DNA of 64,000 nt from an uncultured Pelagibacteraceae bacterium (GTDB lineage: Bacteria; Pseudomonadota; Alphaproteobacteria; Pelagibacterales; Pelagibacteraceae). The stretch covers positions 4,712 to 68,711 of the forward strand of contig CACGUE010000003.1 in NCBI GenBank assembly GCA_902576115.1, in the 5' to 3' direction. The number at the start of each line of letters is the position of its first letter. The first letter of the stretch is position 1. The notes beneath the pieces were generated by a model. The model had not been told where the DNA came from, did not search any database, and saw only the letters and a list, made by a program, of their open reading frames with translations. Position numbers and translations under genes: made by a program. Shown one piece after another: positions 6,501-48,687 of the stretch.

Positions 6501-6875
6501 ATGAAAAAATATTTTGTCTTTCTAATTTTATTCTTAATACCAAATATCTCATTTGGTTTTGAAAAAACTACAAATTTTGATCTGAAAAGATTATTAGAAA
6601 TTCAAAAATCTGGTAAAACAATTGTTATTAATTCTTGGAACGAATATTGTTCAACATGTGCAGCACAAACAAAAGTTTTTGATCAAGCAATGAAAGACTT
6701 TAAAGATGTTGAGTTTTTATTCTATGAGCAAACAGAACATGAAGATATTGCTAAAGCTTTAGGTGTTAATTATTGGACCACAATAGTAGTTTTTAAAGGT
6801 GAAAGTGAAGTAGCAAGAGAAATTGGTTTAACTGACAAAGACCAAATATATAATTTAATAAACAAAGGGATATAA
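6501..6875 (+). CDS. Exported thioredoxin-fold protein
   Basis: Signal peptide, CSTC (CxxC), TIVVFKG..EVAR. Confidence 0.8.
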   Translation: MKKYFVFLILFLIPNISFGFEKTTNFDLKRLLEIQKSGKTIVINSWNEYCSTCAAQTKVFDQAMKDFKDVEFLFYEQTEHEDIAKALGVNYWTTIVVFKGESEVAREIGLTDKDQIYNLINKGI

Positions 6876-6967
6876 TTCCTTTTTACCTCCCCTTTCGAGG
6901 AGGTGAATTCAACAAAAAAGAGAGAAATAAATGAATGTTAAATTCAGGAATAATTTTTTAAATTATG
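6875..6967 (-). ncRNA. Candidate small RNA with a three-helix junction and a pyrimidine-rich loop
   Basis: Minus strand: P1 AUUCCU/AGGAAU, P2 GAAUUUAACA/UGUUGAAUUC around a 21-nt loop, P3 ACCUCCUC-GAAA-GGGGAGGU. Both imperfect pairs are G-U only on the minus strand; promoter immediately upstream. Ends approximate. Confidence 0.6.
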
Positions 6968-6972
6968 ACTGC

Positions 6973-7000
6973 TATATAGAATTAATTTTTTTTTTGTCAA
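6973..7000 (-). promoter_or_regulatory. Sigma70-like promoter facing the candidate sRNA
   Basis: TTGACA (7000-6995), 16-nt spacer, TATATA (6978-6973, within CTATAT context); no minus-strand ORF follows it. Confidence 0.6.
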
Positions 7001-7032
7001 TTTATAAAAAAAAGCAAGAAAAATTAGGGATT

Positions 7033-8151
7033 TTAATTAAGCAATGCCTTTTGAGCTGGTAAATAATCATGACCAAATACATCAGCAACAGCTTTATGAG
7101 TAACACCTCCTTTAAATACATTTAATCCTGCTTGAAAATTTTGATCATCATTTAAAGCTTTTAAGTACCCATCTTTTGCTAGTTTAGATAAAAAAGGAAG
7201 AGTTGCTTTATTCAATGCAATTGTTGATGTTCTAGGAACACCACCGGGCATATTTGCAACACAATAATGAATTATATCATCTATTATAAAAGTTGGTTCT
7301 GCAAAAGTAGTCGGTTTACTGGTTTCTACACATCCTCCTTGATCAATTGCAACATCTACAATTACTGATCCCCTTTTCATTTTTTTTAACATATTCTTTG
7401 TAACTAATTTTGGTGCCTCAGCACCCGGTATCAAAACTCCACCTACTAACAAATCACATTCAGAAATTAATTTTTCTAAATCAGTTTTATCACTTAAGTT
7501 GGGAATTATTTTGTCTCCAAATATTTGGGAAAGTTCGTTTAATCTTTTTTCAGATTTATCTACAATATTAACCTTGGCTTTCATGCCTGTTGCAATTATC
7601 GCAGCATTTTCACCTACTACTCCACCTCCAAGTATAACAACATTTCCAGGCTCTACGCCAGGTGCTCCTCCTAACAAAAGACCACGACCTTTTTGATTTT
7701 TTTCTAAACAATGTGCACCTGCTTGAACTGACATTCTTCCTGCTACTGCACTCATTGGTGCTAATAAAGGAAGTCTTCCGTTATTATCTGTGACTGTTTC
7801 ATAAGCGATGCATATTGATTTGCTGTCTATTAAACCTTGTGTCAGTTCCTTGGCTGCAGCAAGATGAAGATACGTAAAGACAACTTGATTTTCTTTTATC
7901 ATTCTTACTTCGCTAGATTGTGGCTCTTTGACTTTAACAATGATGTCGGAGTCGTTAAATATATCTTCAGCTGTATTAACTATTTTTGCTCCGCTTGATA
8001 CATAATGATCGTTTTCAAATCCTGCTTCAAAACCTCCATTATTTTCAATTAAAACTTCATGGCCATTAGAGGTTAATGCCTTTACACTTTCGGGAGTGAG
8101 TCCAATTCTATTTTCTTGAGGCTTTATTTCTTTTGGAACCCCGATTTTCAT
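7033..8151 (-). CDS. ald: Alanine dehydrogenase
   Basis: MKIGVPKEIK, FTYLHLAA, GGGVVG, DVAIDQGGC, HYCVANMPG. Confidence 0.97.
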   Translation of the reverse strand: MKIGVPKEIKPQENRIGLTPESVKALTSNGHEVLIENNGGFEAGFENDHYVSSGAKIVNTAEDIFNDSDIIVKVKEPQSSEVRMIKENQVVFTYLHLAAAKELTQGLIDSKSICIAYETVTDNNGRLPLLAPMSAVAGRMSVQAGAHCLEKNQKGRGLLLGGAPGVEPGNVVILGGGVVGENAAIIATGMKAKVNIVDKSEKRLNELSQIFGDKIIPNLSDKTDLEKLISECDLLVGGVLIPGAEAPKLVTKNMLKKMKRGSVIVDVAIDQGGCVETSKPTTFAEPTFIIDDIIHYCVANMPGGVPRTSTIALNKATLPFLSKLAKDGYLKALNDDQNFQAGLNVFKGGVTHKAVADVFGHDYLPAQKALLN

Positions 8152-8160
8152 AGAATTAAA

Positions 8161-9504
8161 TTAATTTTTTTTGCTTTTTGAATAGTTGGTAATACCAGTT
8201 CTTAGTTTCTCGATTATTTCATCAATATGTTTTTTTTCGCAGATAAACATTGGAGCAATAATTAAACAATCTCCAGTCGCTTTAAAGTTAACTCCTGCAT
8301 CATAACAATGTTTGAAACATGTAAATCCTGCTGCGCCAGGTTTTTTATGCATTTTAATATCAATACCACCCATCATTCCATAACCTCTTATGTTATCAAC
8401 AACATCAATATCTTTTAAAGACATTAAACCTTCTTGGAAATATGGAGATAAATTTTTTGCTCTATTAAAGATATCATCTTTTTCAAAAATATCTTGAACC
8501 GCTAAGCCTGCAGCTACTGAGACAGGAATTCCAGAGTAAGTGTAGCCATGAAATAATTCTATTGTTCCTTTTGGAGATCCATCCATAACTGTGTCATAAA
8601 TTTCTTCTTTACACGCAACTGCACCTAAAGGACTTATTCCATTTGTTGTAGCTTTAGCCATTGTTATAATATCAGGTGTAACTCCGTATTCTTGAGATGC
8701 AAAAGGCGAACCTGTTCTTCCCCAACCTGTAATAACTTCGTCAAAAACTAATAAAATACCATGCTTATCGCAAATTTCTCTTAGTCTTTGTAAATATCCT
8801 TTTGGTGGAACTAAAGTTCCTGTTGATCCAGCAATTGGTTCAACAATGCAAGCTGCAATATTTTCTGAACCAAAATTTGTACAAATTCTCTCAAGATCTT
8901 CTGCCATCTCTGCGCCAGTTTCAGGTTGACCTGAAACAAATTTATGTTCTGGTAAATGTGTATGTCTCATGTGAAGAACACCTGGCATCAAAACATTGGC
9001 AAATGTTTTCACGTTGTTAATCATTCCGCCAACAGAAGTAGCTCCAATATTCATTCCATGATAGCCTCTTTCTCTTCCAACAAACCTAAATCTATGTCCT
9101 TCACCTCTTGCTTTATGATATGCAACTGCAATTTTAATTGCTGTTTCAACAGCGGTAGATCCACAAATTGTATAAAAAATTCTATTTAAATTTCCTGGTG
9201 TATGTTTAGAAATTTTTGTTGCAAGTTCAAATGAACCACCAAAACCTTGTTGAAATGGTTGAGCATAATCTAATTTTTTTAACTGATTTGTAATTGCATT
9301 AATAATTTCTTCTCTTCCGTGTCCTAATGGATTACAAAATAATCCCGAGCTTGCATCTATCTGAGTTTGACCTTGATGATTTTTTAAATAAACACCTTTT
9401 GCTTCTACAATTAATCTTGGAGACTCTTTAAAATCTCTATTGGATGTAAATGGCATCCAATGTTCATTTAAAGAATTTGGTATTTGAGGTTTTTCTGAAC
9501 TCAT
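8161..9504 (-). CDS. Class III omega-amino acid:pyruvate aminotransferase (probably taurine/hypotaurine or beta-alanine)
   Basis: WMPFTSNR, GYHG, FDEVITGWGR, PLP lysine in MAKA, HGYTYSG; coupled to ald and divergent from tauABC. Start 9504 (or 9522). Confidence 0.85.
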   Translation of the reverse strand: MSSEKPQIPNSLNEHWMPFTSNRDFKESPRLIVEAKGVYLKNHQGQTQIDASSGLFCNPLGHGREEIINAITNQLKKLDYAQPFQQGFGGSFELATKISKHTPGNLNRIFYTICGSTAVETAIKIAVAYHKARGEGHRFRFVGRERGYHGMNIGATSVGGMINNVKTFANVLMPGVLHMRHTHLPEHKFVSGQPETGAEMAEDLERICTNFGSENIAACIVEPIAGSTGTLVPPKGYLQRLREICDKHGILLVFDEVITGWGRTGSPFASQEYGVTPDIITMAKATTNGISPLGAVACKEEIYDTVMDGSPKGTIELFHGYTYSGIPVSVAAGLAVQDIFEKDDIFNRAKNLSPYFQEGLMSLKDIDVVDNIRGYGMMGGIDIKMHKKPGAAGFTCFKHCYDAGVNFKATGDCLIIAPMFICEKKHIDEIIEKLRTGITNYSKSKKN

Positions 9505-9695
9505 AATTATGTTTCGATTCATAGACTAATTATATAAATTAACCAGTAAATTTTAGTCATACTTGCTATGTTAAATGACCGCAACTATAGGTTGTAAGTT
9601 ATGACTTTTGAAGCCTGTGTAATTTATTCATCATTTACTTAAAAGAAAATTTAAACTTAAATATCGATAATTAAATTTAATTAACAGGAGATGAA

Positions 9696-10637
9696 ATGAA
9701 AAAAATAATTAGTTTCATTTTAGGAAGTTTATTTGCTCTAAACTTAACAATCACAGCAGCAAACTCTGCTGCGAACGAGGTTAGAGTTGCATACTTTCTA
9801 GAGTGGCCAAGTCCAAATTTAGAGGACATGCAAAAAAAGAATTTTGCTAAAGCTTTAGGAGTTCCAGTAAAATGGACAAACTTCACAAATGGTGGGGCAA
9901 TGACAGATGCTATGTTAGCAGGAGATATTGATATTTCTTACTCACAAGGTTTAGTACCATTTATTAATGCTGTAAAATCAAATGCACCTATCAAATTAGT
10001 TGATATTGCAATGGAATACGGAATGGGTGGAACAACTTGTGTAACATCTAATGCATCAGGAATAACAAAAGCAAATGCAACTGAATTAGAAGGTAAAAAA
10101 GTTGCTGTTCCGTTAGGTACTATGGCTGAGTACGTTTTCGACGAAAGTATGAAAGTTGTCGGAGCTGACAGAAGCAAAATGGATATTATTCAAATGGATC
10201 CAGAAGAAGGTGCGGCTGCATTAGTAAGTGGAGATGTAGTGATGGCATGTTTATTTGGTGGTAATTCTATCAAAGCTGCGGTTGCTGTAGGATCAAGACT
10301 TTTAACAGTTCAAGAAGCAAGAGATGCAGGTATTTTAGGAATAGATATAACTTCTGTAACAGACAAGTTTATGAAGGAAAATCCTGGAATGTTGAGAACT
10401 TTTATTGAAGTAACTCATGAAGCAAATGAAAGATATAGAAATGGAAAAAGTGATATGAATTCTATGTCAAAAGCTTCAGAGATGAAAGTTGCTGATATGA
10501 AAGAAACTTTAAGTGGTTTCAAATTTTTAACTCCAGAAGAAACTAAAAAATCTATGGAAAGCGGAAACTTAGATGCATTCTTAAAAGGAATGGGAACTCC
10601 AGGTGGAGCAGTAGACACTAGTTTCTTACCTTTATAA
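9696..10637 (+). CDS. tauA: Taurine ABC transporter substrate-binding protein
   Basis: Signal peptide, VAYFLEWP, SsuA/TauA-type motifs (GDIDISY, GKKVAVPLGT); operon context. Confidence 0.8.
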   Translation: MKKIISFILGSLFALNLTITAANSAANEVRVAYFLEWPSPNLEDMQKKNFAKALGVPVKWTNFTNGGAMTDAMLAGDIDISYSQGLVPFINAVKSNAPIKLVDIAMEYGMGGTTCVTSNASGITKANATELEGKKVAVPLGTMAEYVFDESMKVVGADRSKMDIIQMDPEEGAAALVSGDVVMACLFGGNSIKAAVAVGSRLLTVQEARDAGILGIDITSVTDKFMKENPGMLRTFIEVTHEANERYRNGKSDMNSMSKASEMKVADMKETLSGFKFLTPEETKKSMESGNLDAFLKGMGTPGGAVDTSFLPL

Positions 10638-10656
10638 TTTAAAGATTAGAATAATT

Positions 10657-10690
10657 AAATAGGCGCCAATTTTATTGGTGCCTATTTTTT
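10657..10690 (+). terminator. Stem-loop with U-tract after tauA
   Basis: AAATAGGCGCCAAT-TTT-ATTGGTGCCTATTT followed by Ts. Confidence 0.8.
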
Positions 10691-10719
10691 TAAGTAAATA
10701 TTTTATATAAAGTCAACTA

Positions 10720-11517
10720 ATGAGTGATTTAATATCTCAAAACTTAAACATGATTTTCAAAACTCCAAAAGGAGAGACTGTTCATGCTTTAAAAGATTTA
10801 AATTTCAAATTAAAAAAAGGAGAACTGTTAACTGTTCTTGGGCCCTCTGGTTGTGGAAAAACAACTTTATTAAATATTGCAGCTGGTTTCTTAAGACCAA
10901 CATCTGGAAATATAACTTTGAATGGTAAAGAAATTGATGGACCTGGAGTTGAAAGAGGCATGGTTTTTCAACAAGGTGCATTATTCGAATGGTTGACTGT
11001 TGCAGAGAACGTAAACTTTGGTCTTAGAATGAAAAAAAAAGATCCTATAGAAACTTCGAAAAAAGTTGATGAGTGGCTGGAGATTGTTGGCTTAAAAGGA
11101 TTTGGAAATACCCCAACATATCAATTATCTGGAGGAATGCAGCAAAGAGTAGCTCTTGCAAGATGTTTAATCAATGATCCTGATTTGATTTTAATGGATG
11201 AGCCTTTAGGTGCTCTTGATGCTTTAACAAGAGAAAAAATGCAATCTTTAGTTTTGAAAATTTGGAAAGAAACTGGAAAAACAATTATTTTAATTACGCA
11301 CTCGGTTGAGGAAGCACTACTGCTTGGTGAAAGGTTGTATGTAATGGCACCAAGACCAGGTAGGATACATAAAGAATATAATCTTCCATTTGCAGAGATG
11401 GGATTAAAAGAAGATTTAAGAGAAATAAAAAAAAATAAAGATTTTTCATCAAAAAGAGAGGAAATTTTATCCATGATTTGGAACATGGAGGAAGAAATTA
11501 TGGGAAAAGAAAATTAA
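10720..11517 (+). CDS. tauB: Taurine ABC transporter ATP-binding protein
   Basis: GPSGCGKT, LSGGMQQR, MDEPLGALD, ITHSVEEA (NitT/TauT type). Confidence 0.85.
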   Translation: MSDLISQNLNMIFKTPKGETVHALKDLNFKLKKGELLTVLGPSGCGKTTLLNIAAGFLRPTSGNITLNGKEIDGPGVERGMVFQQGALFEWLTVAENVNFGLRMKKKDPIETSKKVDEWLEIVGLKGFGNTPTYQLSGGMQQRVALARCLINDPDLILMDEPLGALDALTREKMQSLVLKIWKETGKTIILITHSVEEALLLGERLYVMAPRPGRIHKEYNLPFAEMGLKEDLREIKKNKDFSSKREEILSMIWNMEEEIMGKEN

Positions 11518-13443
11518 ATGTTTACTCAAATAATAACAATATTAATTCTCGTATCAATTATCGGGTGCATACTTTATGGAAGACGTTTAATAAAAACTGA
11601 AAAAGTTGATGCAGTTTTTGGAAATCCAGAAAGAGCAAAAGGTGGAACTCATTGGATAATTGTCGGAAGTAGTGCAATATTGTTAGTTTGGCTTTATTAT
11701 TCTTGGGATATTGCAAAAGGATTTTATCCAAAATCAGCAAATGAATTATGTCAGGTCGCAAAAATAAATGAGTCTTTATTAGGATTAAAATATCAATTTC
11801 CAATTGAAGAAAGAGAATTCAAAAGTACTTCAATAATAAAAATAGAAAATAAAAATCTTAAAAAAATAAGTTTAGAAATTCAAAATTCGCCAGATTTAAG
11901 CAACATACAGAAAACTGCATTAGTTGGTTTTATTAATAAAACAAACAAATTAATTCCATTACTTACTAACGATAATCTAATGGAGATTAACACAAAAATT
12001 AAAATAGATGAGATGACTGATGAAATTAGATTATTAAGTACTAATTTTCAAAAGAAAGATTATCCATTTGAAACACCAGAGCAAAAAAATGAAAGACAAA
12101 AAGCAATTGCTGAGCAAGGAACCTGGGGCATAGTAACTGTAAGTGCCGGAACAGGATCAATAGAAAATACTATTGAAGTGCCTTTAGTGCCTGAAACAGA
12201 TAGAGGGTTGAAATTTCACGCTGCAGCTGAACAATTAAAAAAAATTAATGATAAATTTTTTAAATTAAGAAACCATAATCCTCAATTCAAAAATGCAATA
12301 AAAGAACTTAAATCAGAGATAAAATTATATAGAAAAAATTTAGATGACACTGAGGAAGTGGCATCTACTTACGCAAAAAACATTGTAAAAATTGCAAGAA
12401 GAATTGAATTTGCAAGTATTTATCCACCAAATGCTCTTAATGAAATGCAAAATGCAATTATTGAATTTGATAATCTTCAAAAAACTGAGCAAGGAGGTTT
12501 AAGATTAATTGACATTCTTTTATTCCCTGCTGGAACTATAGTTGCAAGTGGTCCTAGTTGTTCTGAGCAAGGTTCAGGTAGATGGTTACCAAAACCCTCC
12601 GATACACTTAATAAATTTATTTTAATGTCTAAGCCAAGTGTAGGTTACAAAAATATCCCACTTCTTTGGATTGATATGATGGATGTAAGCCAGATAATTG
12701 GCTTTATATTGCCAGATTGGATAGCTGATGTTTTGCCTGGAGAATATCCGGTTCACACTAAAGACGGTGTGGTTAAGCAAAATTTTAAAGGTAAAGTTTT
12801 AAAAATTGTTACTGGTGATTTTAAGCTATTTAAAATCCCTGTTCCTTATGGTCATATTTGGGATTCATTTTTAAGAGTTTTTCTTGGATTAGTTTTTGGA
12901 ATATTGATCGGTGTACCATTAGGACTTTTCATGGGCTTAAATAGATTTGCTAAAGGTTTCTTTGATCCATTAATTGAACTTTACAGACCAGTACCTCCAC
13001 TTGCGTGGGCTCCTTTAATAATCTCAGTTTTAGGGATTGATAATACTGGAAAAGTATTTTTATTATTTATGGTTTCATTATCTATAATGATTATTTCAGC
13101 CAGAGCTGGAGCATCAGGCACGCAGTTATCTAAAATTCATGCAGCACATTCTCTTGGTGCTTCTAAAAGACAAATACTTAGATATGTTATTTTTCCAAAT
13201 TCTTTACCTGAAATTTTAACAGGTATTAGAGTAGCTGTTGGTATGTGCTGGGGAACTTTAGTTGCAGCAGAATTTTTAGCAGGTACAACTGGAATTGGAT
13301 TTGTTGAAAATGTTGCCAAAAAGTATTTTCAATATGAAGTAATTTGGATCACAATTTTTATAATGGGTATGTTGGGTCTTCTTTTTGACGTAACTTTGAG
13401 AAAAATTATAGATAAGACTATACCTTGGAGAGGTAAAGGTTAA
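11518..13443 (+). CDS. tauC: Taurine ABC transporter permease with long N-terminal extension
   Basis: C-terminal ~200 aa is TauC/SsuC-type (RPVPPLAWAP, AAHSLGAS, LVAAE), preceded by two TMs and a large soluble domain. Confidence 0.82.
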   Translation: MFTQIITILILVSIIGCILYGRRLIKTEKVDAVFGNPERAKGGTHWIIVGSSAILLVWLYYSWDIAKGFYPKSANELCQVAKINESLLGLKYQFPIEEREFKSTSIIKIENKNLKKISLEIQNSPDLSNIQKTALVGFINKTNKLIPLLTNDNLMEINTKIKIDEMTDEIRLLSTNFQKKDYPFETPEQKNERQKAIAEQGTWGIVTVSAGTGSIENTIEVPLVPETDRGLKFHAAAEQLKKINDKFFKLRNHNPQFKNAIKELKSEIKLYRKNLDDTEEVASTYAKNIVKIARRIEFASIYPPNALNEMQNAIIEFDNLQKTEQGGLRLIDILLFPAGTIVASGPSCSEQGSGRWLPKPSDTLNKFILMSKPSVGYKNIPLLWIDMMDVSQIIGFILPDWIADVLPGEYPVHTKDGVVKQNFKGKVLKIVTGDFKLFKIPVPYGHIWDSFLRVFLGLVFGILIGVPLGLFMGLNRFAKGFFDPLIELYRPVPPLAWAPLIISVLGIDNTGKVFLLFMVSLSIMIISARAGASGTQLSKIHAAHSLGASKRQILRYVIFPNSLPEILTGIRVAVGMCWGTLVAAEFLAGTTGIGFVENVAKKYFQYEVIWITIFIMGMLGLLFDVTLRKIIDKTIPWRGKG

Positions 13444-13456
13444 TTTCATTCTATTA

Positions 13457-14467
13457 ATGTCTGTAAATAATACAAAAATTAAATCTATTATTAAAAAAAT
13501 TTTTATAAAAAGAGGGTTGAAAACAAATCATGCTATTATTTGTGCAAATGCAATTATCAATGCAGAGCTTGTAGGTGCGCCTTCTCATGGATTGTCTCGT
13601 TTAAAAATGTATTGTGAAAGAATCTCAAAAAAAGTCATTAATCCGAGACCTAAAATAACTGTAAAAAATATATCAAAATCTATATCAATAATTGATGCTG
13701 ATAATTCTATTGGTTTTGTTGCAGCAGATGAGGCTATTAAAAAAACTATTCAAAATGCAAAAAAAACAGGGATTGGTTTAGTTGCTGTAAAAAACAGCGG
13801 ACATTACGGTCTATCTGGATACTACGTCGAGCAAGCGGTTAAAAAAAATTTAATAACATTCGCATTTACAAATGCTCCTCCAGCTATTGCGCCTTTTGGT
13901 GGAAAAAAATCAGTCTTTGGAACTAATCCAATATGTTTTGGAACTCAAACAAATAGTAAGGTTCCATTTATACTGGATACATCAATGTCAATGATTAATA
14001 GAGGTAAAATTAGGATTGCAGAAAAGTTAGGAAAAAAAATACCATATGGCGTTGCTTTAAACAAATTTGGAAAACCAACTACAAATGCAAAAGAAGCTCT
14101 TGCTGGGGTACAACTTCCAATAGCTGGATTTAGAGGATCTGGATTAGCCTGGATGGTAGATATTTTAACTGGAGTATTTGTTGGAAGTAATCATGGTGGC
14201 AAAGTAAAAGACCCATTTGATGATTTCTCTGGGCCACAAAATATCGGTCACTTATTTTTAGCATTTAAAGACAATCTATTTGTTAAAGATTATAAAAAAG
14301 AGATAAAAAAAAATATTAATAGAATAAAAAAAATACCAAATCTAAAAGGACAAAAAATCTTTTATCCTGGCGAGCAAAAGTTTTTAAGAACAAAAACAAA
14401 CTCTGAAAAATCTATAAAAATTCCAAAAAATATTAAAAAGGATTTAGATATTCTATTAGCTAATTAA
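13457..14467 (+). CDS. Ldh_2 family (malate/L-sulfolactate, ComC-like) dehydrogenase
   Basis: SHGLSRL, NSGHYG, FGTNPI, YPGE motifs. Confidence 0.85.
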   Translation: MSVNNTKIKSIIKKIFIKRGLKTNHAIICANAIINAELVGAPSHGLSRLKMYCERISKKVINPRPKITVKNISKSISIIDADNSIGFVAADEAIKKTIQNAKKTGIGLVAVKNSGHYGLSGYYVEQAVKKNLITFAFTNAPPAIAPFGGKKSVFGTNPICFGTQTNSKVPFILDTSMSMINRGKIRIAEKLGKKIPYGVALNKFGKPTTNAKEALAGVQLPIAGFRGSGLAWMVDILTGVFVGSNHGGKVKDPFDDFSGPQNIGHLFLAFKDNLFVKDYKKEIKKNINRIKKIPNLKGQKIFYPGEQKFLRTKTNSEKSIKIPKNIKKDLDILLAN

Positions 14468-14670
14468 CCTGCAAAATAACCTAGTATTCCAATAGATAAA
14501 CAGACTGAAAGTATTATTATTTTTGACTGAAGTGCCTCTTTTTTCTTTTCAGTGATTACTCGTTTCTTTAGAACATCTATATTTACTTTACGAGGGGACA
14601 TTCGAATTACTCTTCGTTTTTTTTCAGGTATTTCAATATTAGATGTTCTGTTTAAGCTTTCAGTACTCAT
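14464..14670 (-). CDS. Small basic protein with C-terminal TM anchor
   Basis: 68 aa, Lys/Arg-rich, ends in one hydrophobic helix. Confidence 0.6.
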   Translation of the reverse strand: MSTESLNRTSNIEIPEKKRRVIRMSPRKVNIDVLKKRVITEKKKEALQSKIIILSVCLSIGILGYFAG

Positions 14671-14714
14671 TAAATTATTTAATCATATGGTAAAAAAAAT
14701 TTACAGAATTTAAC

Positions 14715-14761
14715 TGTTCAAAATGGGTTGACTCAACTTTTAAAATTGTTCAAATTGGGTT
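14715..14761. promoter_or_regulatory. Direct-repeat pair, candidate operator
   Basis: TGTTCAAAATGGGTT (14715-14729) and TGTTCAAATTGGGTT (14747-14761), 14/15 identical, 32-bp period, in a divergent intergenic region. Confidence 0.55.
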
Positions 14762-14771
14762 TTGATACATT

Positions 14772-15734
14772 ATGAAGCAGCTACCAAGTGTAAATTCCGA
14801 ACTAGATGATGAGCTGATCGATAAAATTTTCAAAAATCATTTTGATATTTTAAGTCCTTTTTTTTTAAAACTTATGTCTGAATGGACAATCGGTGCTTAT
14901 AAAGTGTTCAAAGATATAGATACTTACACAATTCTAATTTATTTGATTAGTAAGCAGTTTGATTTTTACAGACGAAATAATTTAAATATTACTTTCAATA
15001 ATTTTTATAATGATAAAACATTAGAGATTGAGAAAATTAACCTTATAAGAATATCAAAGGATCTTCAAATTCCAAAAGAAAGTGTCAGAAGAAAAGTTAT
15101 ATCCCTGGAAAAAAAAGGAATAATTAAAAAAAAGGGCAAGAAGATTACAATAGATAGAAGTGCTTACAATTCAACACAGCCGAATGATACATTAAAAAAT
15201 ATATGCATACTTTTATCTGTTTTTAGTCAAATTTTAAAAGAAGAAAAAGTTATAAAAAATGAAATGTCCAGTAATGAAATTAATAACTTAATAAAACATA
15301 ATTTCTCATTTTGCTGGTATCAATTTTATAAATTTTTATTCCCTTACTGCTTAAGGTGGAAAAATTATTTTGGTGATATGGAAATATTTACTATTTTAGC
15401 AACTATAATTTTGAATAATAATTCAAAAATTGGAAGGCAACTTAAAGGAGTTGATAGTTATTTAGATAAATGGAGAGATAAAATTATTAATAAAAAAATA
15501 AAAGGAATTAATGCAATGTCTATTTCTGAAATAACAGGAATACCAAGACCAACAGTAGTAAGAAAAATCAAGAAATTAACTAAAAATAAATTTATTTCTA
15601 TAGACAAAAATAAATTGATAAATTTTGATGTCAGCAAACAAAATTTTAAAGAAATGTCAAAAATTCAAGATGAAAATTTAAAATCAATAAATGTTTTTAT
15701 AAAAAGAACCTACAATCAAATAAATCTTAATTAG
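14772..15734 (+). CDS. Protein with two winged-HTH-like repeats, putative DNA-binding regulator
   Basis: INLIRISKDLQIPKESVRRKVISLEKKGII and INAMSISEITGIPRPTVVRKIKKLTKNKFI. Confidence 0.7.
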   Translation: MKQLPSVNSELDDELIDKIFKNHFDILSPFFLKLMSEWTIGAYKVFKDIDTYTILIYLISKQFDFYRRNNLNITFNNFYNDKTLEIEKINLIRISKDLQIPKESVRRKVISLEKKGIIKKKGKKITIDRSAYNSTQPNDTLKNICILLSVFSQILKEEKVIKNEMSSNEINNLIKHNFSFCWYQFYKFLFPYCLRWKNYFGDMEIFTILATIILNNNSKIGRQLKGVDSYLDKWRDKIINKKIKGINAMSISEITGIPRPTVVRKIKKLTKNKFISIDKNKLINFDVSKQNFKEMSKIQDENLKSINVFIKRTYNQINLN

Positions 15735-16575
15735 AATTTTTTAGAATATATATAAATATAAATCCAGTTATATACATTATTAATGCATAAGCAGCTGTTG
15801 GAACCATGTAAGCGACATCATTGAAAATTTGTGTTGCTACAAATACAGCTAAAGTTCCATTTTGTAATCCACATTCTAAAGAAATACATTTTCTCTGTGG
15901 TATTCCAGTTGCAAAAGCTTTTGCAATGTAAAATGCCAAAGTCATCATGACTACGTTTAATATTAAAACAGCTAAACCCGCTTGACCTAAGTATGATATT
16001 ATATTTTCTCTTTCCTCAATCCATATCGCTGCAAATACAACAATAAATAAAATACCTGTAATTCTATTTACAATATTAATATTGGACGAAATAAAGTTTT
16101 CAGCGAATCTTCTAATTATCATTCCAAGAATTACTGGCACAGTTACAACTAGTGCCATTTTAAGAGCAATACCAGTCATCGTAATATCTGAGGATAAATC
16201 AGTTACACCTAATAATTTTGCTGAAGAAAAAACAATAAATGGAACAGAAAAAATACTAATTAAACTACCTACTGCTGTTAACGAAATAGATAATGCAACA
16301 TCTCCATTTGCAAATTTTGTTAAGACATTTGATGTTACTCCTCCAGGAGCAGCAGCAATAATCATTAATCCTAAAGCTAATTCAACTGGTAATCTTAATA
16401 TTAAAAGTAAAATATAAGCTACGATTGGGAGAAGTATTAATTGACAAATTATTCCGACTGTAAAATCTTTTGGATTATTTATAACTCTTAAAAAATCTCT
16501 AGTTGATAAACCCAATCCCAGACCTAACATTATAAGGGCTAACGCTATAGGTGCAATTTTTGTAACTATCTCCAT
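15727..16575 (-). CDS. Bile acid:sodium symporter (BASS/SBF) family transporter
   Basis: MLGLGLGL, AAAPGGVTSN, GDVALSISLT, ECGLQNGTLA. Confidence 0.9.
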   Translation of the reverse strand: MEIVTKIAPIALALIMLGLGLGLSTRDFLRVINNPKDFTVGIICQLILLPIVAYILLLILRLPVELALGLMIIAAAPGGVTSNVLTKFANGDVALSISLTAVGSLISIFSVPFIVFSSAKLLGVTDLSSDITMTGIALKMALVVTVPVILGMIIRRFAENFISSNINIVNRITGILFIVVFAAIWIEERENIISYLGQAGLAVLILNVVMMTLAFYIAKAFATGIPQRKCISLECGLQNGTLAVFVATQIFNDVAYMVPTAAYALIMYITGFIFIYILKNSN

Positions 16576-16659
16576 CGTTTATTCAATTTTAAACTATTTT
16601 TATATCGAACGTAATAAAAAATATTGATATTTAGAACCATAACAAATATTTAAACTCAT

Positions 16660-17571
16660 ATGTTATCTGATAAATCTACAGTTTGCCCTGTTAATCTACT
16701 TAATATAGCCCATCAAAAAAGGGGTGTAAAAGCAGCCATTGTAAATGCAGGTAAAAAATTACCGATGATGTCAGTAATGGACGCTGTTTCAGAAAAACTG
16801 ATCACCCCAATATTAATAGGTGACAAACAAAAAATAAAAGAATGCGCAGATGAGCTTAAATTTGACATATCAAATTTTGAAATAATTAATGAGCCAGTTG
16901 AAAATAATACAGCAGGAATTGCAACAAAACTTGCATCGGAAGATAAAGTAAAAATTATTGTAAAAGGACATATTCATACTGATATATTGATGAAAGAAGT
17001 TCTTAAAAGAGAATATAAATTAATTGGAAAAACAAGACTAAGTCATATTTGGCATATGACATTACAAAAAGATGATAAACCATTAATCATAACCGATGGA
17101 GCATTGAATGTTTCTCCTAACCTAAAAACTAAAATGCATATTTTAAAAAATGTTATAGATTTTAGTCATAGAATTAATATTCCAAGACCAAAAATTTCTA
17201 TCCTTTCAGCAACAGAAGAAGTTATTGATAGTGTACAGAGTTCGGTTGAAGCTAAAGAATTAACTGAATTGGCAAGTAAAGAAAATTTTAATGCTGATAT
17301 TTTTGGACCCTTAGCATTTGACAATAGTATTTCAAAAAAATCTGCTTCTATTAAGGGAATTGAGAATATAGTTGCTGGGGAAGCTGATGTATTATTAGTT
17401 CCAAATGTCGAAACTGGAAATGCGCTTGTAAAAATGATGATTTATTTTATGGGAGCATGTGCAGCAGGCGTAGTTGTTGGAGGTAAAGTACCTGTTGTTA
17501 TAACAAGTAGATCAGATGATGCGACAGCAAGACTTGCTTCTATAGCTGCAGCCGTTGTTGCTTTAGATTAA
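16660..17571 (+). CDS. pta: Phosphate acetyl/butyryltransferase
   Basis: VKGHIHT, TDGALN, GPLAFDNSIS, VPNVETGN, VVITSRSD. Confidence 0.8.
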   Translation: MLSDKSTVCPVNLLNIAHQKRGVKAAIVNAGKKLPMMSVMDAVSEKLITPILIGDKQKIKECADELKFDISNFEIINEPVENNTAGIATKLASEDKVKIIVKGHIHTDILMKEVLKREYKLIGKTRLSHIWHMTLQKDDKPLIITDGALNVSPNLKTKMHILKNVIDFSHRINIPRPKISILSATEEVIDSVQSSVEAKELTELASKENFNADIFGPLAFDNSISKKSASIKGIENIVAGEADVLLVPNVETGNALVKMMIYFMGACAAGVVVGGKVPVVITSRSDDATARLASIAAAVVALD

Positions 17572-17630
17572 ACTTCTATTGAATAAACATCTTATATAAT
17601 TTAAACATTTGTAAAATTAGAGAAAAAATA

Positions 17631-18917
17631 ATGGCAATTACTTATATAAAAAAAGCTGAAAAAACTGCATTTACAGGAGAAGATGAAACAAGAACTAAGG
17701 TAAGTTCTATTTTAAAAGATTTAGAAAAAACTAAAGATCAAGGTGTTAAAGATATTTTAAAAAAATTTGATAATTATGAAGGTGATATAATTGTTAGCAA
17801 AGAAAAAATTGAGGAAATAAATAAAACTTTAGATCAGAAGATTAAAGATGATATTCAGTTCTCTCATGAAAGAGTAAGGAAGTTTGCAGAACATCAACTA
17901 GAAAATCTTGGAAAAGACTCAGAAGTTGAATTATCGCCTGGTTTAATAGCAGGGCAAAAATTAATACCTGTAAATACCGTTGGGTGTTACGTGCCCGGTG
18001 GAAGATATAACAATATCGCCTCTGCTATAATGAGTGTGACAACTGCAAAAGTTGCTGGAGTAAAAAATGTAATTGCAACAAGTCCGCCGAAAGATTCAAA
18101 TGGTGCTAACCCAATTATAATTTATACAGCTAACCTTTGTGGTGCAGATGTAATTATGAACATTGGCGGTATAGGAGCAATTGGTGCGCTTGCATATGGT
18201 TGCTTTGGTAATCCAGAAGTAGATATGATTGTTGGACCTGGAAATAAATTTGTAGCAGAGTCTAAAAGGATTTTATTTGGAAAAGTTGGAATTGATTTAT
18301 TTGCAGGACCAACCGAAATAGGCATTATTGCAGATCATACAGCTGACAAAGAAATAATCGCTTATGATTTAGTTGGACAGGCTGAACATGGTCCTGACTC
18401 TCCAGCTTGGCTTTACACTACTGATAAATCTTTATGTGATTATGTTATGAAAAGAGTTCCAGAAATTATTCAAGAACTACCTGAACATAACAGAAATAAT
18501 GCTGATGCTGCATGGAGAGATTATGGAGAAGTAATTATGTGTGATACCAAAGAAGAAATGATGAAAGTGAGTGATGAATATGCACCAGAACATTTAGAGG
18601 TTCAAGCTGAAGACTTAGACTGGTATTTAAAAAATCTTAAAAATTATGGTTCTTTATTTTTAGGTGAGGAAACAACAGTTGCGTATGGAGATAAATGCTC
18701 TGGACCAAATCATATTCTACCAACAAAAGGTGCAGGAAAATATACTGGAGGCTTATACGTTGGAAAATTTATAAAAACAGTCACTTACCAAAAAATGAAT
18801 AAAGAATCTAACAAAGAAGTTGGTGCTGCAGCTGCTAGAATTTCTAGATATGAAGGTATGGAAGCTCATGCTAGAACTGGTGATGTAAGACTTCGAAAAT
18901 ATGGTTTTTCAAATTAG
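17631..18917 (+). CDS. hpsN: HisD-fold dehydrogenase of the sulfopropanediol (DHPS) 3-dehydrogenase subgroup
   Basis: GCYVPGGRY, GPGNKFVAE, QAEHG, AAWRDYGEV, APEHL, YGDKCSGPNHILPT. AWRDY and YGDK match recalled HpsN proteins rather than HisD; no his operon nearby. Confidence 0.75.
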   Translation: MAITYIKKAEKTAFTGEDETRTKVSSILKDLEKTKDQGVKDILKKFDNYEGDIIVSKEKIEEINKTLDQKIKDDIQFSHERVRKFAEHQLENLGKDSEVELSPGLIAGQKLIPVNTVGCYVPGGRYNNIASAIMSVTTAKVAGVKNVIATSPPKDSNGANPIIIYTANLCGADVIMNIGGIGAIGALAYGCFGNPEVDMIVGPGNKFVAESKRILFGKVGIDLFAGPTEIGIIADHTADKEIIAYDLVGQAEHGPDSPAWLYTTDKSLCDYVMKRVPEIIQELPEHNRNNADAAWRDYGEVIMCDTKEEMMKVSDEYAPEHLEVQAEDLDWYLKNLKNYGSLFLGEETTVAYGDKCSGPNHILPTKGAGKYTGGLYVGKFIKTVTYQKMNKESNKEVGAAAARISRYEGMEAHARTGDVRLRKYGFSN

Positions 18918-34243: not shown

Positions 34244-34534
34244 ATGATCATAAAAATAGAAGAAAATATAAAATCATTTTCATCTTGGATGAATATGGTA
34301 AAGGCGAATGCTGAAAAAATTAAAGGATTTGGTGCTACGATTATTTTTGCAGGTGTATCAAAAGAAGACCCTACAAAATTTACTGTAATCGTTAAGTATG
34401 CAACCATGGAAGGTTTTGAAGCATTTAAAAATGACAAAGAACTTCATGCAGCAAGAGCTGAAGCAGGCGTGGATTTAGATTCAGCAAAGGTTACACCGAT
34501 GCATGAAGATTTTATGGAAAATTTTAGTGGATAA
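34244..34534 (+). CDS. Small hypothetical protein, probable dimeric alpha-beta barrel
   Basis: 96 aa, good SD, beta-alpha-beta-beta-alpha pattern ending ARAEAGV. Confidence 0.65.
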   Translation: MIIKIEENIKSFSSWMNMVKANAEKIKGFGATIIFAGVSKEDPTKFTVIVKYATMEGFEAFKNDKELHAARAEAGVDLDSAKVTPMHEDFMENFSG

Positions 34535-34561
34535 ACAATCAATATAAAGAAAGGATAAAAT

Positions 34562-34852
34562 ATGGAAACAGAAACACTAGTAGTAGCTCATTTAAAAGAA
34601 GGTATGTTAGAAAAATTTATGGGCTTTATGCAATCAGATGCTGGTATGGCAGAAAGATCGAAAGTTGCAAATGTATCAAAAACAATTGGAACAGTTGCAC
34701 CTGACAAAAAAACAGTAATGTTTAAAATTTTTGTGACTGATAAAGCTGCTCTTAAAGCTTTTATAGATGGAAGCAATCCAGTATCAGCTCCAGTTATGAA
34801 AGAAGTTATGGAAAGTTATAGTGTCTACGAATTAAATAAAGTAGATATGTAA
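34562..34852 (+). CDS. Small hypothetical protein, probable dimeric alpha-beta barrel
   Basis: 96 aa, AAAGGA SD, ferredoxin-like periodicity. Confidence 0.65.
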   Translation: METETLVVAHLKEGMLEKFMGFMQSDAGMAERSKVANVSKTIGTVAPDKKTVMFKIFVTDKAALKAFIDGSNPVSAPVMKEVMESYSVYELNKVDM

Positions 34853-34875
34853 TAATTTTTGTAATAAGGTTTGTA

Positions 34876-37651: not shown

Positions 37652-37726
37652 TGGTGATTATTAATATTGTATTTAATTTTAAAGTCGACTTAAATAGTCT
37701 CATTTAACAAAAAAGAGGGAAATAAC

Positions 37727-38716
37727 ATGAAAATCTTTAAAAGAATAATATTTTCTCTAATTTTCGTTTCTTTTGCCAGTGCAAGTTTGGCGGAAACAAA
37801 AATGAGAATTACACTTCAATTACCATTAAAGGCTCACTTAGGTCAGAACCTTTTGGTATTTAAAAAAGAATTAGAATCAAGATCAGACATTAAAGTAGAG
37901 ATTTATGACTCTGCACAACTTTACAAAGATAAAGAGGTTCCGCAAGCTGTAGGTTCGGGAGCGATCGAGGCTGGTGTTGCATCTATAACAAGATTTGCGG
38001 GAACTAATCCTGAAGTTGATGTTTTCTATCTTCCATTCTTATTTGATTCAGAACAAAAAGTAAGAAAAGCAACTCAAGCTGGTTCTGAGATAAGAGCTAT
38101 TCTTGATCCTGCAATAGCAAAGACTGGAGCAGTTCCACTTTATTATCAAGCTTATGGATCAGCAATAATGTTATCTAATGGTGGTCCGATGAAAACTCCG
38201 GCTGACTTTAAAGATAAAAAAATTAGAGTATTTGGAAAAACACTTGGAGCTTTTGTAAGTTCTTTAGGCGGTAAACCAGCATTAATATCTGGATCTGAAC
38301 AATATTTAGCTTACCAAAGAAATACAGTTGATGCAGGTATGACTGGTGTATCTGGTGTAAAATCTAGAAAATTATATCAGGTAATGGATACTTTAACAGT
38401 TACAAATCATGGCGATATCGAATTCGTTGTTGTTGCTAATGACAAATGGCTAAGCTCATTAACTCAAAAACAAAGAGACGCTATATCTGAAGCATCAAAA
38501 GTAGCTGAAAAAGCTGTAAGGGATGATATGGCTAACATCGAAGCTGGTGCTTATAAAGAAGCAAAAGAAAATGGAATGAACATTGTAAACCTAAGTAGTT
38601 CTGAAGTTTCTGCTCTTAAAAAAGCATCATCATCTGTTATTGATGATTACATTTCAAGAACAGGTGGAGCTGGTGGAGTTGGTGATCAACTTGTAAAAGC
38701 TGCAAACAAACTTTAA
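37727..38716 (+). CDS. dctP: TRAP transporter substrate-binding protein
   Basis: Signal peptide, VEIYDSAQL, LPFLF, KKIRV. Confidence 0.9.
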   Translation: MKIFKRIIFSLIFVSFASASLAETKMRITLQLPLKAHLGQNLLVFKKELESRSDIKVEIYDSAQLYKDKEVPQAVGSGAIEAGVASITRFAGTNPEVDVFYLPFLFDSEQKVRKATQAGSEIRAILDPAIAKTGAVPLYYQAYGSAIMLSNGGPMKTPADFKDKKIRVFGKTLGAFVSSLGGKPALISGSEQYLAYQRNTVDAGMTGVSGVKSRKLYQVMDTLTVTNHGDIEFVVVANDKWLSSLTQKQRDAISEASKVAEKAVRDDMANIEAGAYKEAKENGMNIVNLSSSEVSALKKASSSVIDDYISRTGGAGGVGDQLVKAANKL

Positions 38717-38727
38717 ATCATATAAAT

Positions 38728-38752
38728 ACCCCGCACTTAAGTGCGGGGTTTT
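38728..38752 (+). terminator. Stem-loop after dctP
   Basis: ACCCCGCACTTAAGTGCGGGGT, a perfect 22-bp palindrome followed by TTT. Confidence 0.75.
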
Positions 38753-38755
38753 CAA

Positions 38756-39232
38756 ATGAATATCTACGACAAAATTGTAAAATATTCTGGCTATTTAGCA
38801 TCAGCGTTATTTATTATGATAGGCTTTATAGTTTCTTATGAAGTTATCATGAGATACATATTTAATTCACCTACTATTTGGGTAAATGAAATTTCTCGAT
38901 TTTTACAAATTTGGGCTACTTATTTAGCTTTAACTTATACTTTTCATAAAAATGATTTTATCAGAATAACAGTTATATATGACAAAGTAGGAGATAAAGG
39001 AAAAAAGATATTAGATTTAATAAGTGCAATATTCATTTTAATTTTTAGTGGATTTGTACTTTATTATGGATGGTTAATTGCTTATGACTCTCTTAAAGTT
39101 GGGAGAACAAGCTCTACAATTTTAGATGTTCCATCATTTCTTACAGAATTTGCAATACCATTATGTTTTGCATTTTTGGTATTAAGAGTGCTTTTCGAAG
39201 TACCTAAATACATCAAAGATATAATTAAATGA
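38756..39232 (+). CDS. dctQ: TRAP transporter small permease
   Basis: EVIMRYIFNSPTIWVNEI; 4 TM; start moved to ATG 38756, outside the hairpin. Confidence 0.88.
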   Translation: MNIYDKIVKYSGYLASALFIMIGFIVSYEVIMRYIFNSPTIWVNEISRFLQIWATYLALTYTFHKNDFIRITVIYDKVGDKGKKILDLISAIFILIFSGFVLYYGWLIAYDSLKVGRTSSTILDVPSFLTEFAIPLCFAFLVLRVLFEVPKYIKDIIK

Positions 39233-40500
39233 CAGTAGCAATAATCTTATTTTTGTTATTTTTTGTACTTTTTTTAGGAGTGCCAATAGCATTTGGTTTA
39301 GGTTCTATAGGATTGGGTTTAATGTTATTTGGAGATATTTCTCCTTTAATGATCCCACAAACTTTTTACAGTGTGGCAGATAACTTTATTTTATTAGCCG
39401 TTCCGATGTTTTTGATGATGTCTAATATATTGTTAAAAGCAGGTGTTGGAGAAGATCTTTTTAATTTTGCTCAAAGCTGGGTTGGAAATTTTCCAGGTGG
39501 TTTAGCAATAGCAACTATAGTTTCTTGCAGTATTTTTGCTGCTATATCTGGATCATCAGTGGCTACTGCTGCAACAATCTCAACTGTAGCATTTCCTGCA
39601 ATGATTAATAGAGGTTATCACAGAAACTTTACTTTGGGTATTTTGGCAGCGGGTGGAACTTTAGGGATTTTAATTCCTCCATCAATTCCAATGATTGTAT
39701 ATGCATTTGTTGTAGAAGAGTCGGTACTAAGTATGTTTCTTGCAGGAATTGGACCTGGAATAGTTTTAGCTTTATTTTTTATTATATTTTCAGTTTTTTA
39801 CGTAAAATTTTTTAATAAAGAAGTTCAAAATGTATCCAGCACTTTAGAAGAAAAAATTAAATACACAAAAAGAGGTTTGCCAATATTATTAATGGCCTTC
39901 ATCATGCTGGGTGGAATTTATGCTGGAATTTATACGCCAACAGAAGCTGGTGGTATTGGTTTTTTAATATCATTTATCTATGTTGTGGCTAAAAAAAGAT
40001 TAGATTTTAAAGGTTTTATCGAAGCCGGTCTGGAGACAATGAAGACTACAGTTACAATATTTATAATTATTGCAGGAGCAAAAGTTTTTGGTAAAGCAAT
40101 TTCTCTTTATAGAATTCCTCAAGATTTATCATCTTTCATAGTTACTAATATTAATGAGACTGGTTTGTTTATACTTGTTGTTTGTATTACTTTGTTAATC
40201 TTAGGATTTATAATGGAAACTCTTTCATTAATTTTAATCATGATGCCTATATTTTCGATTTCAATCGCTGCAATGAATATTGATTTGATTTGGTTTGGAA
40301 TAATTTTTACATTAATGATTGAGTGCGCATTAATTACTCCTCCCGTAGGACTAAATATTTATGTTCTGCAAGCTATTGGTAAAGCAAAAATGTCAGAAAT
40401 AGCTAAAGGTGTGATACCTTTTGTCATTATAATGTTATTTACAGTATTTGTTATTTACTTATTCCCTGACCTGGCATTATATATACCTTTTAAATTATAA
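39229..40500 (+). CDS. dctM: TRAP transporter large permease
   Basis: AAISGSSVAT, GTLGILIPPSI, TPTEA, ITPPVGLN. Confidence 0.93.
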   Translation: MTVAIILFLLFFVLFLGVPIAFGLGSIGLGLMLFGDISPLMIPQTFYSVADNFILLAVPMFLMMSNILLKAGVGEDLFNFAQSWVGNFPGGLAIATIVSCSIFAAISGSSVATAATISTVAFPAMINRGYHRNFTLGILAAGGTLGILIPPSIPMIVYAFVVEESVLSMFLAGIGPGIVLALFFIIFSVFYVKFFNKEVQNVSSTLEEKIKYTKRGLPILLMAFIMLGGIYAGIYTPTEAGGIGFLISFIYVVAKKRLDFKGFIEAGLETMKTTVTIFIIIAGAKVFGKAISLYRIPQDLSSFIVTNINETGLFILVVCITLLILGFIMETLSLILIMMPIFSISIAAMNIDLIWFGIIFTLMIECALITPPVGLNIYVLQAIGKAKMSEIAKGVIPFVIIMLFTVFVIYLFPDLALYIPFKL

Positions 40501-40502
40501 TT

Positions 40503-47124: not shown

Positions 47125-48687
47125 TTAGTCAAAGCTCGCAAAACGGAATAACGGTTCGTTATTCGGTCTTATCGGAACATTAACATCTTTTTTTGCAGCC
47201 CAAGATATAACTTGGTGATGTAAAGGAAGATAAGAAATATCCTCTTTTACGATTTTCCAAGCTTTAGCTATAGCAGCATTTCTCTTATCTAGGTTAACTT
47301 CACCTTCCATAACTCTTATAGCGGCATCTACATCAGAATTACTAAAGTTAACTCTGTTCCAGCTTGCTCCACTTTCATATAAGTAATGAAAAACATAATG
47401 ACTATCTAAAGTTGGAACTCCCCAACCTAACATATAAAAGTCACCTTGATTATCCTTTAGTTCTTTAAAGTGCTTACTTTTTGTTTGGGCAAATAGATTT
47501 ACCTTAACACCGATTTTACCTAACATACCAACAACAGCTGTACATATAGCTTCATCATTTACATATCTGTCATTTGGACATCTGAGCTCAACTTCAAATC
47601 CATTCGGATATCCAGCATCAGCTAGAAGTTTTTTTGCAGCAGCTACATCATAAGGAAGTCTCTTATCAAGTTCTTCTGTGTATCCGTTAACACCTGGAAA
47701 AGTAATTATTCCTGCAGGTTCACTTAAACCTCTCATTACTTTTTTCTTAATAGCTTCAATATCTATTGCTTGATAAAGAGCTTGTCTAACTGCTTTCTTT
47801 TTGAATGGATTATCTCCTGTATTACCTGTTCTAAGTTTATCTGCTCCCTGATCCATACCAAGGAATATAGTTCTCATTTGAGCAGTGCTTTCAACTTTAT
47901 GAGCAGGTGAATTTTTAATTCTAGCTAAATCTTGCACAGGGGCATCAGTAACAACATCAATTTCACCTGATAAAAGAGCTGCAACTCTAGTAGCTGCATT
48001 TTTTATAGGTAGTAGATGAATTTCTGTTACTTTATCATCTTTCATTGTTCCCCACCATTTTTTATTACGTTTGAAAACTGTTTTAGTATTTGGTTCTCTT
48101 AATGTAATTTTAAATGGTCCAGTTCCCATAGCATTTGTAGCTGAAAAAGTTTCTTGTCCAGCATCCCAGTTCTGCGCCATAACTGCAAAATTCTTTTCAC
48201 TCCATTTTTTTGACATTATAAAAATGTTTGAAAGTTGGTTTAAAAGAATTGGATTTGGTTTACTTGTTGTTATTTCTACTGTGTAGTCATTAACTGCTTT
48301 TACACCTGATACTGTACTAATATATTCTTTAAAATCAGATGTTCTTTGTTTTGCTCTTAAAATACTAAAAACAACATCTTCAGATGTAAATGGAGTTCCA
48401 TCAGAAAATTTAACATCTTCTCTTAATTTAAAGATCCAAGTATTAGGACCTTGAGTTCTCCACTCTGTTGCTAGTTGAGGTCCAATTTTCATATCTAATC
48501 CCCTAGTAACTAGAGCTTCGTATACTTGTCTAGATACTTGAGTGGTAGGACCTTCATTTTGAGCATGAGGATCAAGTGTTAAACTATCACCCTGCATTGA
48601 CCATTTAATAGTTTTTGCAAATGTTTGTGTTGGAGCAAAAGCTAGAAAAAAAGCCAATAAAATTTTTATAAAATACCCATACTTCAT
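47125..48687 (-). CDS. Peptide ABC transporter substrate-binding protein (family 5)
   Basis: Signal peptide, TLDPH, LREDVKFSDG, GTGPF, VRQAL..AID. Confidence 0.92.
   Translation of the reverse strand: MKYGYFIKILLAFFLAFAPTQTFAKTIKWSMQGDSLTLDPHAQNEGPTTQVSRQVYEALVTRGLDMKIGPQLATEWRTQGPNTWIFKLREDVKFSDGTPFTSEDVVFSILRAKQRTSDFKEYISTVSGVKAVNDYTVEITTSKPNPILLNQLSNIFIMSKKWSEKNFAVMAQNWDAGQETFSATNAMGTGPFKITLREPNTKTVFKRNKKWWGTMKDDKVTEIHLLPIKNAATRVAALLSGEIDVVTDAPVQDLARIKNSPAHKVESTAQMRTIFLGMDQGADKLRTGNTGDNPFKKKAVRQALYQAIDIEAIKKKVMRGLSEPAGIITFPGVNGYTEELDKRLPYDVAAAKKLLADAGYPNGFEVELRCPNDRYVNDEAICTAVVGMLGKIGVKVNLFAQTKSKHFKELKDNQGDFYMLGWGVPTLDSHYVFHYLYESGASWNRVNFSNSDVDAAIRVMEGEVNLDKRNAAIAKAWKIVKEDISYLPLHHQVISWAAKKDVNVPIRPNNEPLFRFASFD

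Follow-up and report, generated by a model that had tools for sequence, protein, structure and literature searches.

A conserved, clade-specific intergenic element of SAR11 bacteria as a candidate antisense RNA against substrate-binding-protein start regions

A spacer between two convergent genes of a SAR11 bacterium appears to encode a short structured RNA that, on balance, is probably a young antisense regulator of substrate-binding-protein (SBP) genes. We propose that this RNA would act without Hfq on the start regions of SBP mRNAs, with dctP as its strongest partner, and that it would resemble AbcR1/2 or GcvB without being a member of either group. We hold with considerably greater confidence that the spacer between ald and trx carries a real, conserved and clade-specific non-coding element.

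SAR11 genomes are extremely streamlined. If our reading is true, a streamlined genome can acquire riboregulation of nutrient uptake even without Hfq, and the element offers a small, fully specified RNA-target pair that is testable in vitro. The window, by which we mean the whole 64,000-nucleotide stretch that was analysed, comes from an assembly of 1.076 Mb with 29% GC and 77% completeness. The host is a SAR11 bacterium, and genomes with the same dctP are titled Pelagibacteraceae. According to the accessible part of one study, transport functions dominate the active promoters of SAR11 cells in situ (PMC5069720).

Results and discussion

Genomic setting

The 157-base spacer (6876-7032) is flanked by a thioredoxin-like gene (trx) on the plus strand and by an alanine dehydrogenase gene (ald) on the minus strand. 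It lies downstream of an omega-aminotransferase gene and adjoins a TauA-like ABC system (Table 1). Read-through from the aminotransferase-ald genes is a possible second source of RNA on the same strand, and a terminator scan of the interval from ald to the element listed no candidate site.

Several features of the surroundings can be recorded in their own right. The region 8161-18917 holds the omega-aminotransferase gene, the TauA-like ABC system, Ldh_2, Pta and a histidinol-dehydrogenase-like gene, a combination suggestive of organosulfonate/amine catabolism. The spacer ends (7018-7035 and 6860-6877) are loosely alike, each resembling the last few codons of a trx-type gene, which is possibly a scar from the origin of the spacer. 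Farther along, a run of small genes includes three neighbouring ORFs of 96 aa each at 34244-35166 (DUF3764, no family and DUF1330).

Table 1. Positions in the window of the element, its neighbours and its predicted targets
Feature	Position	Strand	Basis or remark
Thioredoxin-like gene (trx), convergent	6501..6875	+	Stop codon shares last base of P1
Three-helix RNA core (P1, P2, P3)	6875..6951	-	Fold z -4.85; pi 0.0055
P1	6951-6946/6880-6875	-	Predicted fold
P2	6945-6936/6914-6905	-	Predicted fold; encloses 21-nt loop
P2 loop, 21 nt, complementary to the SD-to-AUG region of SBP mRNAs	6915..6935	-	Target ranking
P3, GC-rich GNRA hairpin with GAAA loop	6904-6897/6892-6885	-	Predicted fold
Variable 5' leader with predicted start site (probably ~6966)	6952..6972	-	pi 0.052; indels
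Predicted sigma-70 promoter, TTGACA-16-TATATA	6973..7000	-	Sequence; lacks T at -7
Omega-aminotransferase gene and ald, upstream of element	7033..9522	-	Pfam; NCBIfam AptA above cut-off
dctP 5' UTR, SD and start codon, best predicted target	37702..37731	+	Duplex and net-binding rank 1
dctP-dctQ-dctM TRAP transporter genes	37727..40500	+	Pfam DctP, DctQ, DctM
SBP_bac_5 gene, secondary predicted target	47125..48687	-	Loop rank 6/1052; Pfam

Promoter and three-helix fold

The preliminary description of this locus had placed a minus-strand promoter between the convergent genes, ahead of a three-helix RNA, and both parts of this description hold. On the minus strand, TTGACA occupies 7000-6995 and TATATA 6978-6973, with 16 nt between them. 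This spacing is fixed in 51 of 51 sequence contexts, and the 10-A tract between the hexamers is constant in length in all of them, while the A-tract of the leader varies. A consensus sigma-70 scanner did not list the promoter because its -10 hexamer lacks the final T (at -7). Most alphaproteobacterial sigma-70 promoters lack this T, as far as the accessible parts of two studies report (PMC8407463, PMC7703639), and for this reason we do not count its absence against the promoter.

The predicted folding energy is -25.9 kcal/mol for the minus strand (z -4.85; matched by none of 200 shuffles) and -17.8 kcal/mol for the plus strand (z -2.11; matched by 7 of 200). Both non-canonical pairs are U-G pairs, one in P2 and one in P3, whose plus-strand equivalents are A-C mismatches, and the GNRA loop is likewise present on the minus strand only, as had been claimed. 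These features, together with the fold scores and two changes in P1 described below, support the minus strand as the RNA strand. In both the minimum-energy and the centroid structure, the 21-nt loop of P2 is predicted to be unpaired and P3 to be closed. Outside called ORFs, the source genome has only two GC-rich GNRA hairpins, namely P3 and one at the 3' end of the 16S rRNA, and the 5' arm of P3 carries the same 7-nt anti-Shine-Dalgarno (anti-SD) sequence as the 16S 3' tail. No intrinsic terminator was listed on either strand, P1 is not followed by a U-tract, the minus strand continues after P3 with As, and P3 lacks a U-tract on either strand.

A search of Rfam, which had been proposed as a check, yielded no family: no match within the window reached the gathering score. 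Seven weak matches at E values up to 10 included no AbcR-type sRNA, and those to a CRISPR repeat and a Phe leader scored far under the family cut-offs. Indels in relatives disrupt the small plus-strand ORFs (starts at 6931 or 6935), and on the minus strand no start for a small ORF follows P3. A dif-like site was considered and dropped, since the likeness is confined to one arm.

Conservation and selection

For the analysis of diversity, 84 loci were reduced to 51 distinct contexts, some of which perhaps represent the same strain. Diversity per site (pi) is lowest in the promoter (0.0028) and the 77-nt core (0.0055). It rises to 0.052 in the leader and 0.063 upstream of the -35 hexamer, and at fourfold sites it reaches 0.15 in ald and 0.23 in trx. 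An earlier run on 19 of 22 genomes (three with short contigs were omitted) gave a like picture. The core is kept even next to trx alleles of only 73-83% identity. Carriers were found via the P3 pattern, and P3 conservation is thus partly built in, whereas that of the loop, P2 and the promoter is not. Purifying selection on the element is supported by these comparisons of diversity.

As had been suggested, relatives were collected and searched for covariation. Promoter and core are near-invariant across the 51 contexts, all of one clade, and none of the 24 pairs of P1-P3 changes on both sides: 22 are invariant and two vary on one side. In one genome two P1 pairs have become G-U pairs, changes that are compatible with the minus strand only. 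The variants that would weaken the structure are single ones, affecting one end pair of P2, one end pair of P1 (in two contexts) and the tetraloop (one change).

In sequence, the stems vary as little as the loop, which is more constancy than pairing alone demands. This would fit an RNA that is transcribed but acts by another route, either as a decoy or ligand of a cold-shock or ribosomal protein, through P3 as an anti-SD/SD pair, or with P2 serving as an inverted-repeat DNA site. The identity of the P3 5' arm with the 16S anti-SD also speaks for such a role. However, invariance is expected in a young clade as well, P3 is closed in both predicted structures, and its anti-SD has no SBP gene among its ten best partners. 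We therefore consider this alternative distinctly improbable.

dctP as the best predicted partner

An extended match to the ribosome-binding site and start codon of dctP was the central claim made for this locus, and the match is present as described: 6935-6907 and 37702-37731 can form a 29-bp duplex that contains two G-U pairs and a single bulged C. In a BLAST search of the genome, the dctP start is the top non-self match (E 2.6e-4, 40.1 bits), although its lead is narrow, with a match on contig C13 having the same E value and 39.2 bits. The plus-strand similarity to dctP covers 56 columns at 79% and reaches the first codons.

Targets were ranked over 1052 start regions taken from a simple ORF caller, some of whose starts are wrong. 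A whole-core duplex ranking without opening costs proved noisy (dctP came second), and for that reason hairpin-only and net-energy rankings were used. For the P2 hairpin, dctP ranks first of 1052 at -31.6, followed by -27.7. When opening costs are included, it ranks first again with a net binding energy of -21.3 kcal/mol, and the next, rbfA, reaches -15.7 in a distribution with a mean of -2.1 and a standard deviation of 2.0. The proposed comparison with a shuffled background also favoured the duplex, in that none of 105 dinucleotide shuffles reached dctP by their best partner in the genome (mean -19.5, minimum -23.6, versus -31.3). The leader and the P1 5' arm are predicted to pair with early dctP codons, but this segment alone places dctP only at rank 71 of 1052. 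Only 5 of 1052 antisense start regions lie inside a stem of at least 11 bp, as this one does, and the P2 5' arm and the dctP UTR share the same 8 letters. The beginning of the duplex at 37702 would coincide with the dctP start site if TTGTAT at 37667 is the -35 hexamer.

We also compared 409 intergenic strands with all start regions. By score the element-dctP pair led with 54, ahead of two others at 51; by energy (-30.3) it was third, in a list headed by a tRNA-arm repeat. Because its lead in this wider trial is narrow by score and lost by energy, the duplex, which lies in the top 1% without being unique, is by itself only suggestive evidence for pairing. The case rests on the promoter, the placement of the loop, conservation and target class combined.

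A dctP of at least 99% identity occurs in 14 of 19 carriers and was missed in five, two of which are 97-99% complete. Conversely, the element is present in 8/9 and 32/42 genomes with such a dctP, sets that overlap the P3-carrier genomes in part. It is present in 0 of 26 genomes with a more diverged dctP, where a search for a diverged element also found none, and the diverged dctP leaders pair more weakly (-12.7 to -28.8 versus -31.6). Since these genomes are kin, the co-occurrence is not independent evidence.

The dctP locus has some further traits. A palindrome, AAGTCGACTT, at 37680-37692 in the dctP promoter region is a possible regulator site and recurs in the majority of dctP orthologues whose proteins are at least about 91% identical. 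At 37727-41378 the TRAP genes are followed by a gene for an ICL/PEP-mutase-family enzyme that falls under all NCBIfam cut-offs. Solved relatives of the TRAP transporter proteins are only distant (best E 3.7e-26), and remote SAR11 records, HIMB114 among them, contain close relatives of DctP (84-87%).

The loop and the SBP class

The choice of dctP as target stood in so far as it tops the 1052 start regions, but the loop motif turned out to be common to many SBP genes rather than to dctP alone. With 23 of the 1052 genes set beforehand as SBP genes by Pfam, eight of the top ten predicted partners of the loop alone belong to this class. OpuAC-type genes hold ranks 1 and 2 and dctP rank 3; rank 8 is an SBP_bac_1 gene that was recognised afterwards as a ninth SBP, and an ABC ATPase and an ammonium transporter follow at ranks 10 and 11.

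Controls place this enrichment in perspective. The canonical anti-SD had no SBP gene in its top ten, and 40 shuffled loops gave at most six in the top ten. Mock loops drawn from non-SBP genes with strong SDs (60/64) gave a mean of 1.4 and a maximum of seven. Mock loops complementary to the 23 SBP genes, with self excluded, gave a mean of 3.4 and a maximum of seven, the number that the element loop also retains, approximately, once dctP is set aside. Judged on predicted pairing, the loop thus reads as an anti-SBP consensus equal to the best natural complement, not clearly better. Even in genomes in which no element was found, leaders of OpuAC orthologues pair nearly as strongly (up to -21.7), which indicates that the SBP motif predates the RNA or is independent of it. 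Many SBP genes of the source genome (C1, C3, C5, C7 and C14) share an A-tract/GAGAGG motif at their starts, in contrast to the canonical GGAGG SD that other genes use.

Distribution and origin of the spacer

With up to three mismatches allowed, the P3 20-mer was found in 22 of 401 genomes of the genus, and every match is exact. It always lies beside trx, with ald on the far side wherever the contig extends, and the 21 genomes with an Ald of at least 97% identity are all among the 22 carriers. In the other genomes where ald meets trx (7/7), the spacer is absent and the stop codons overlap. Because these seven relatives are scattered across the ald tree, the element is most simply read as a lineage-specific gain in one clade.

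Searches for diverged forms were consistent with this narrow distribution. A covariance model built from four near-identical sequences, of limited sensitivity and restricted to 30 scored candidates in each genome, was run on 149 family genomes and detected no diverged copy; of its five weak matches, two lie inside ribosomal-protein operons and none has P3. Nothing convincing emerged from 36 and 20 ald/trx loci, and two scans of viral sequences found no element. A metagenome scan returned ten loci, of which eight are the same element and two an unrelated SD hairpin. Comparison of ald 3' ends indicates that the gene following ald is freely swapped among relatives, in which convergent neighbours of ald overlap it by their stop codons, with neither spacer nor terminator.

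The dctP similarity, which continues into the first codons on a plus strand that resembles an SBP start region, could mean that the spacer is an inert relic, namely the 5' end (hairpin, SD, ATG and first codons) of a deleted dctP-like gene between trx and ald. We regard an inert relic as very unlikely. Diversity is about 27-40 times under that of silent sites, no trx-SBP-ald arrangement was seen among the ald and trx loci read, and A-tract indels frameshift the plus-strand ORFs in relatives. The G-U pairs, the GNRA loop and both P1 changes also suit the minus strand only. A relic origin is nevertheless compatible with present function as an RNA, and the element likely arose when a copied dctP-type 5' end was brought under a promoter on the opposite strand.

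RNA contigs and control in cis

Twelve sequencing runs recorded as RNA contain the stretch, and eight were compared, all as contigs. These cover the spacer, although strand, ends and level are unreadable from them and DNA may contribute. The contigs of these eight runs, which give no strand, contain no discrete 90-nt species. A contig break at 6870/6899 is common to runs and fits an allele difference at 6869. In X2, X7 and X8 (two studies), contigs stop at 6605 inside trx, where there is neither a loose end nor a known allele difference and where the minus strand has a U-run. The contig spanning 6605-6899 is deeper in X7 and X8 (127 and 89) than the next (23 and 11), but contig depth is a poor measure, and neither such differences nor the absent cover left of 6605 is evidence of expression. 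We take the stop at 6605 as a weak hint of an RNA end, and so of a longer RNA. An earlier metatranscriptome survey of small RNAs in the ocean could have recorded the element sequence.

The element might instead control the neighbouring genes in cis, either by an antisense transcript running into trx (perhaps 6966 to about 6605) or by hairpins that define and shield the 3' ends of the two convergent mRNAs. Its resemblance to SBP starts would then be inherited or incidental. The lack of a terminator after P1, the shared 6605 stop and the deeper contig in X7 and X8 are in keeping with this explanation. However, contigs of X1 and X3 run through 6605, P3 has no U-tract on either strand, and seven relatives manage a stop-to-stop ald-trx arrangement without any such structure. 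Control in cis also leaves unexplained a conserved, unpaired 21-nt loop that matches SBP starts, and we judge it unlikely.

Proposed mode of action

In the antisense reading that we prefer, an RNA of about 90 nt would be made from the minus strand, starting near 6966 and perhaps also arising by read-through of the aminotransferase-ald genes. It would cover the ribosome-binding site and start codon of SBP mRNAs and block their translation without Hfq. The U-rich loop might serve as a toehold on the A/G-rich SD region, and with dctP the duplex could spread into the 3' arm of P2 and push its 5' arm aside, yielding 29 bp, perhaps enough to dispense with a chaperone. P3 would remain closed and lend the RNA stability. 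Loop U residues would stand opposite the variable A/G positions of the SBP motif, such that one loop might read several mRNAs: two OpuAC-type, three DctP, SBP5, SBP8 and TctC. A more elaborate version is possible but much more tentative, in which a recent chaperone-free sRNA, derived from a copied transporter 5' end and acting by toehold and strand displacement, ranks the uptake systems of a streamlined SAR11 clade: with the omega-amine/alanine genes on, its single loop would silence a whole class of binding-protein mRNAs marked by a common start-site motif.

Relationship to known systems

Our literature search, whose coverage lay mostly outside subscription papers, found no characterised base-pairing sRNA of SAR11 and no case involving Hfq. 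A search with PF17209 found no Hfq in the source genome (77% complete) or in any of five genomes that are 97-100% complete, four of them carriers; as a control, the same search was positive for 5 of 14 named genomes. A search for ProQ in the source genome (77% complete) was likewise negative. The likeness to AbcR and GcvB that had been proposed survives in the predicted SBP targets and the anti-SD loop, but with Hfq not found in six of six genomes the element cannot act exactly as AbcR1/2 and GcvB do.

The enterobacterial sRNA GcvB uses one pyrimidine-rich region to read many periplasmic-binding-protein leaders. The element is predicted to resemble it in directing a single region at many binding-protein leaders. 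It differs in sequence and structure, with no match to the GcvB family model, in a predicted site that includes both SD and AUG, and in the Hfq that was not found here; GcvB is described as Hfq-dependent and transporter-directed in the accessible part of one paper (PMC4152367).

AbcR1 and AbcR2 of the Rhizobiales are closer, being alphaproteobacterial RNAs with an anti-SD in a hairpin loop and with transporter or periplasmic-binding-protein mRNAs as targets, which for the element are predictions. In the accessible parts of the sources, AbcR1 is Hfq-associated and acts on transporter mRNAs through a loop-exposed module (PMC4152367), and AbcR1/2 silence such mRNAs by two anti-SD motifs (PMC8844928). 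In contrast, the element matches no AbcR family model or other Rfam family, no Hfq was found with it, it is predicted to pair over a longer stretch (up to 29 bp), and it is a three-way junction limited to one Pelagibacter clade. With a loop anti-SD and SBP-enriched targets, as far as prediction goes, it may work like AbcR1/2 while standing outside that family.

Among Pelagibacter RNAs, the SAR11_0636 motif of Meyer et al. (2009) is likewise a small intergenic three-stem junction, proposed as separately transcribed. It has another gene context and bulges in P2, and the accessible text proposes no target for it; the SAR11 motifs given there are all other than the element (PMC2704228).

In origin, the nearest parallel is with young sRNAs that appear in intergenic regions made by rearrangement, which, in the accessible part of one account (PMC4350180), share with the element a lineage-specific spacer and a new sigma-70 promoter. 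Unlike these, the spacer described here seems to hold a copied target-type start and thereby a ready-made seed. If true, the element possibly captures an sRNA in the course of emerging from its own target.
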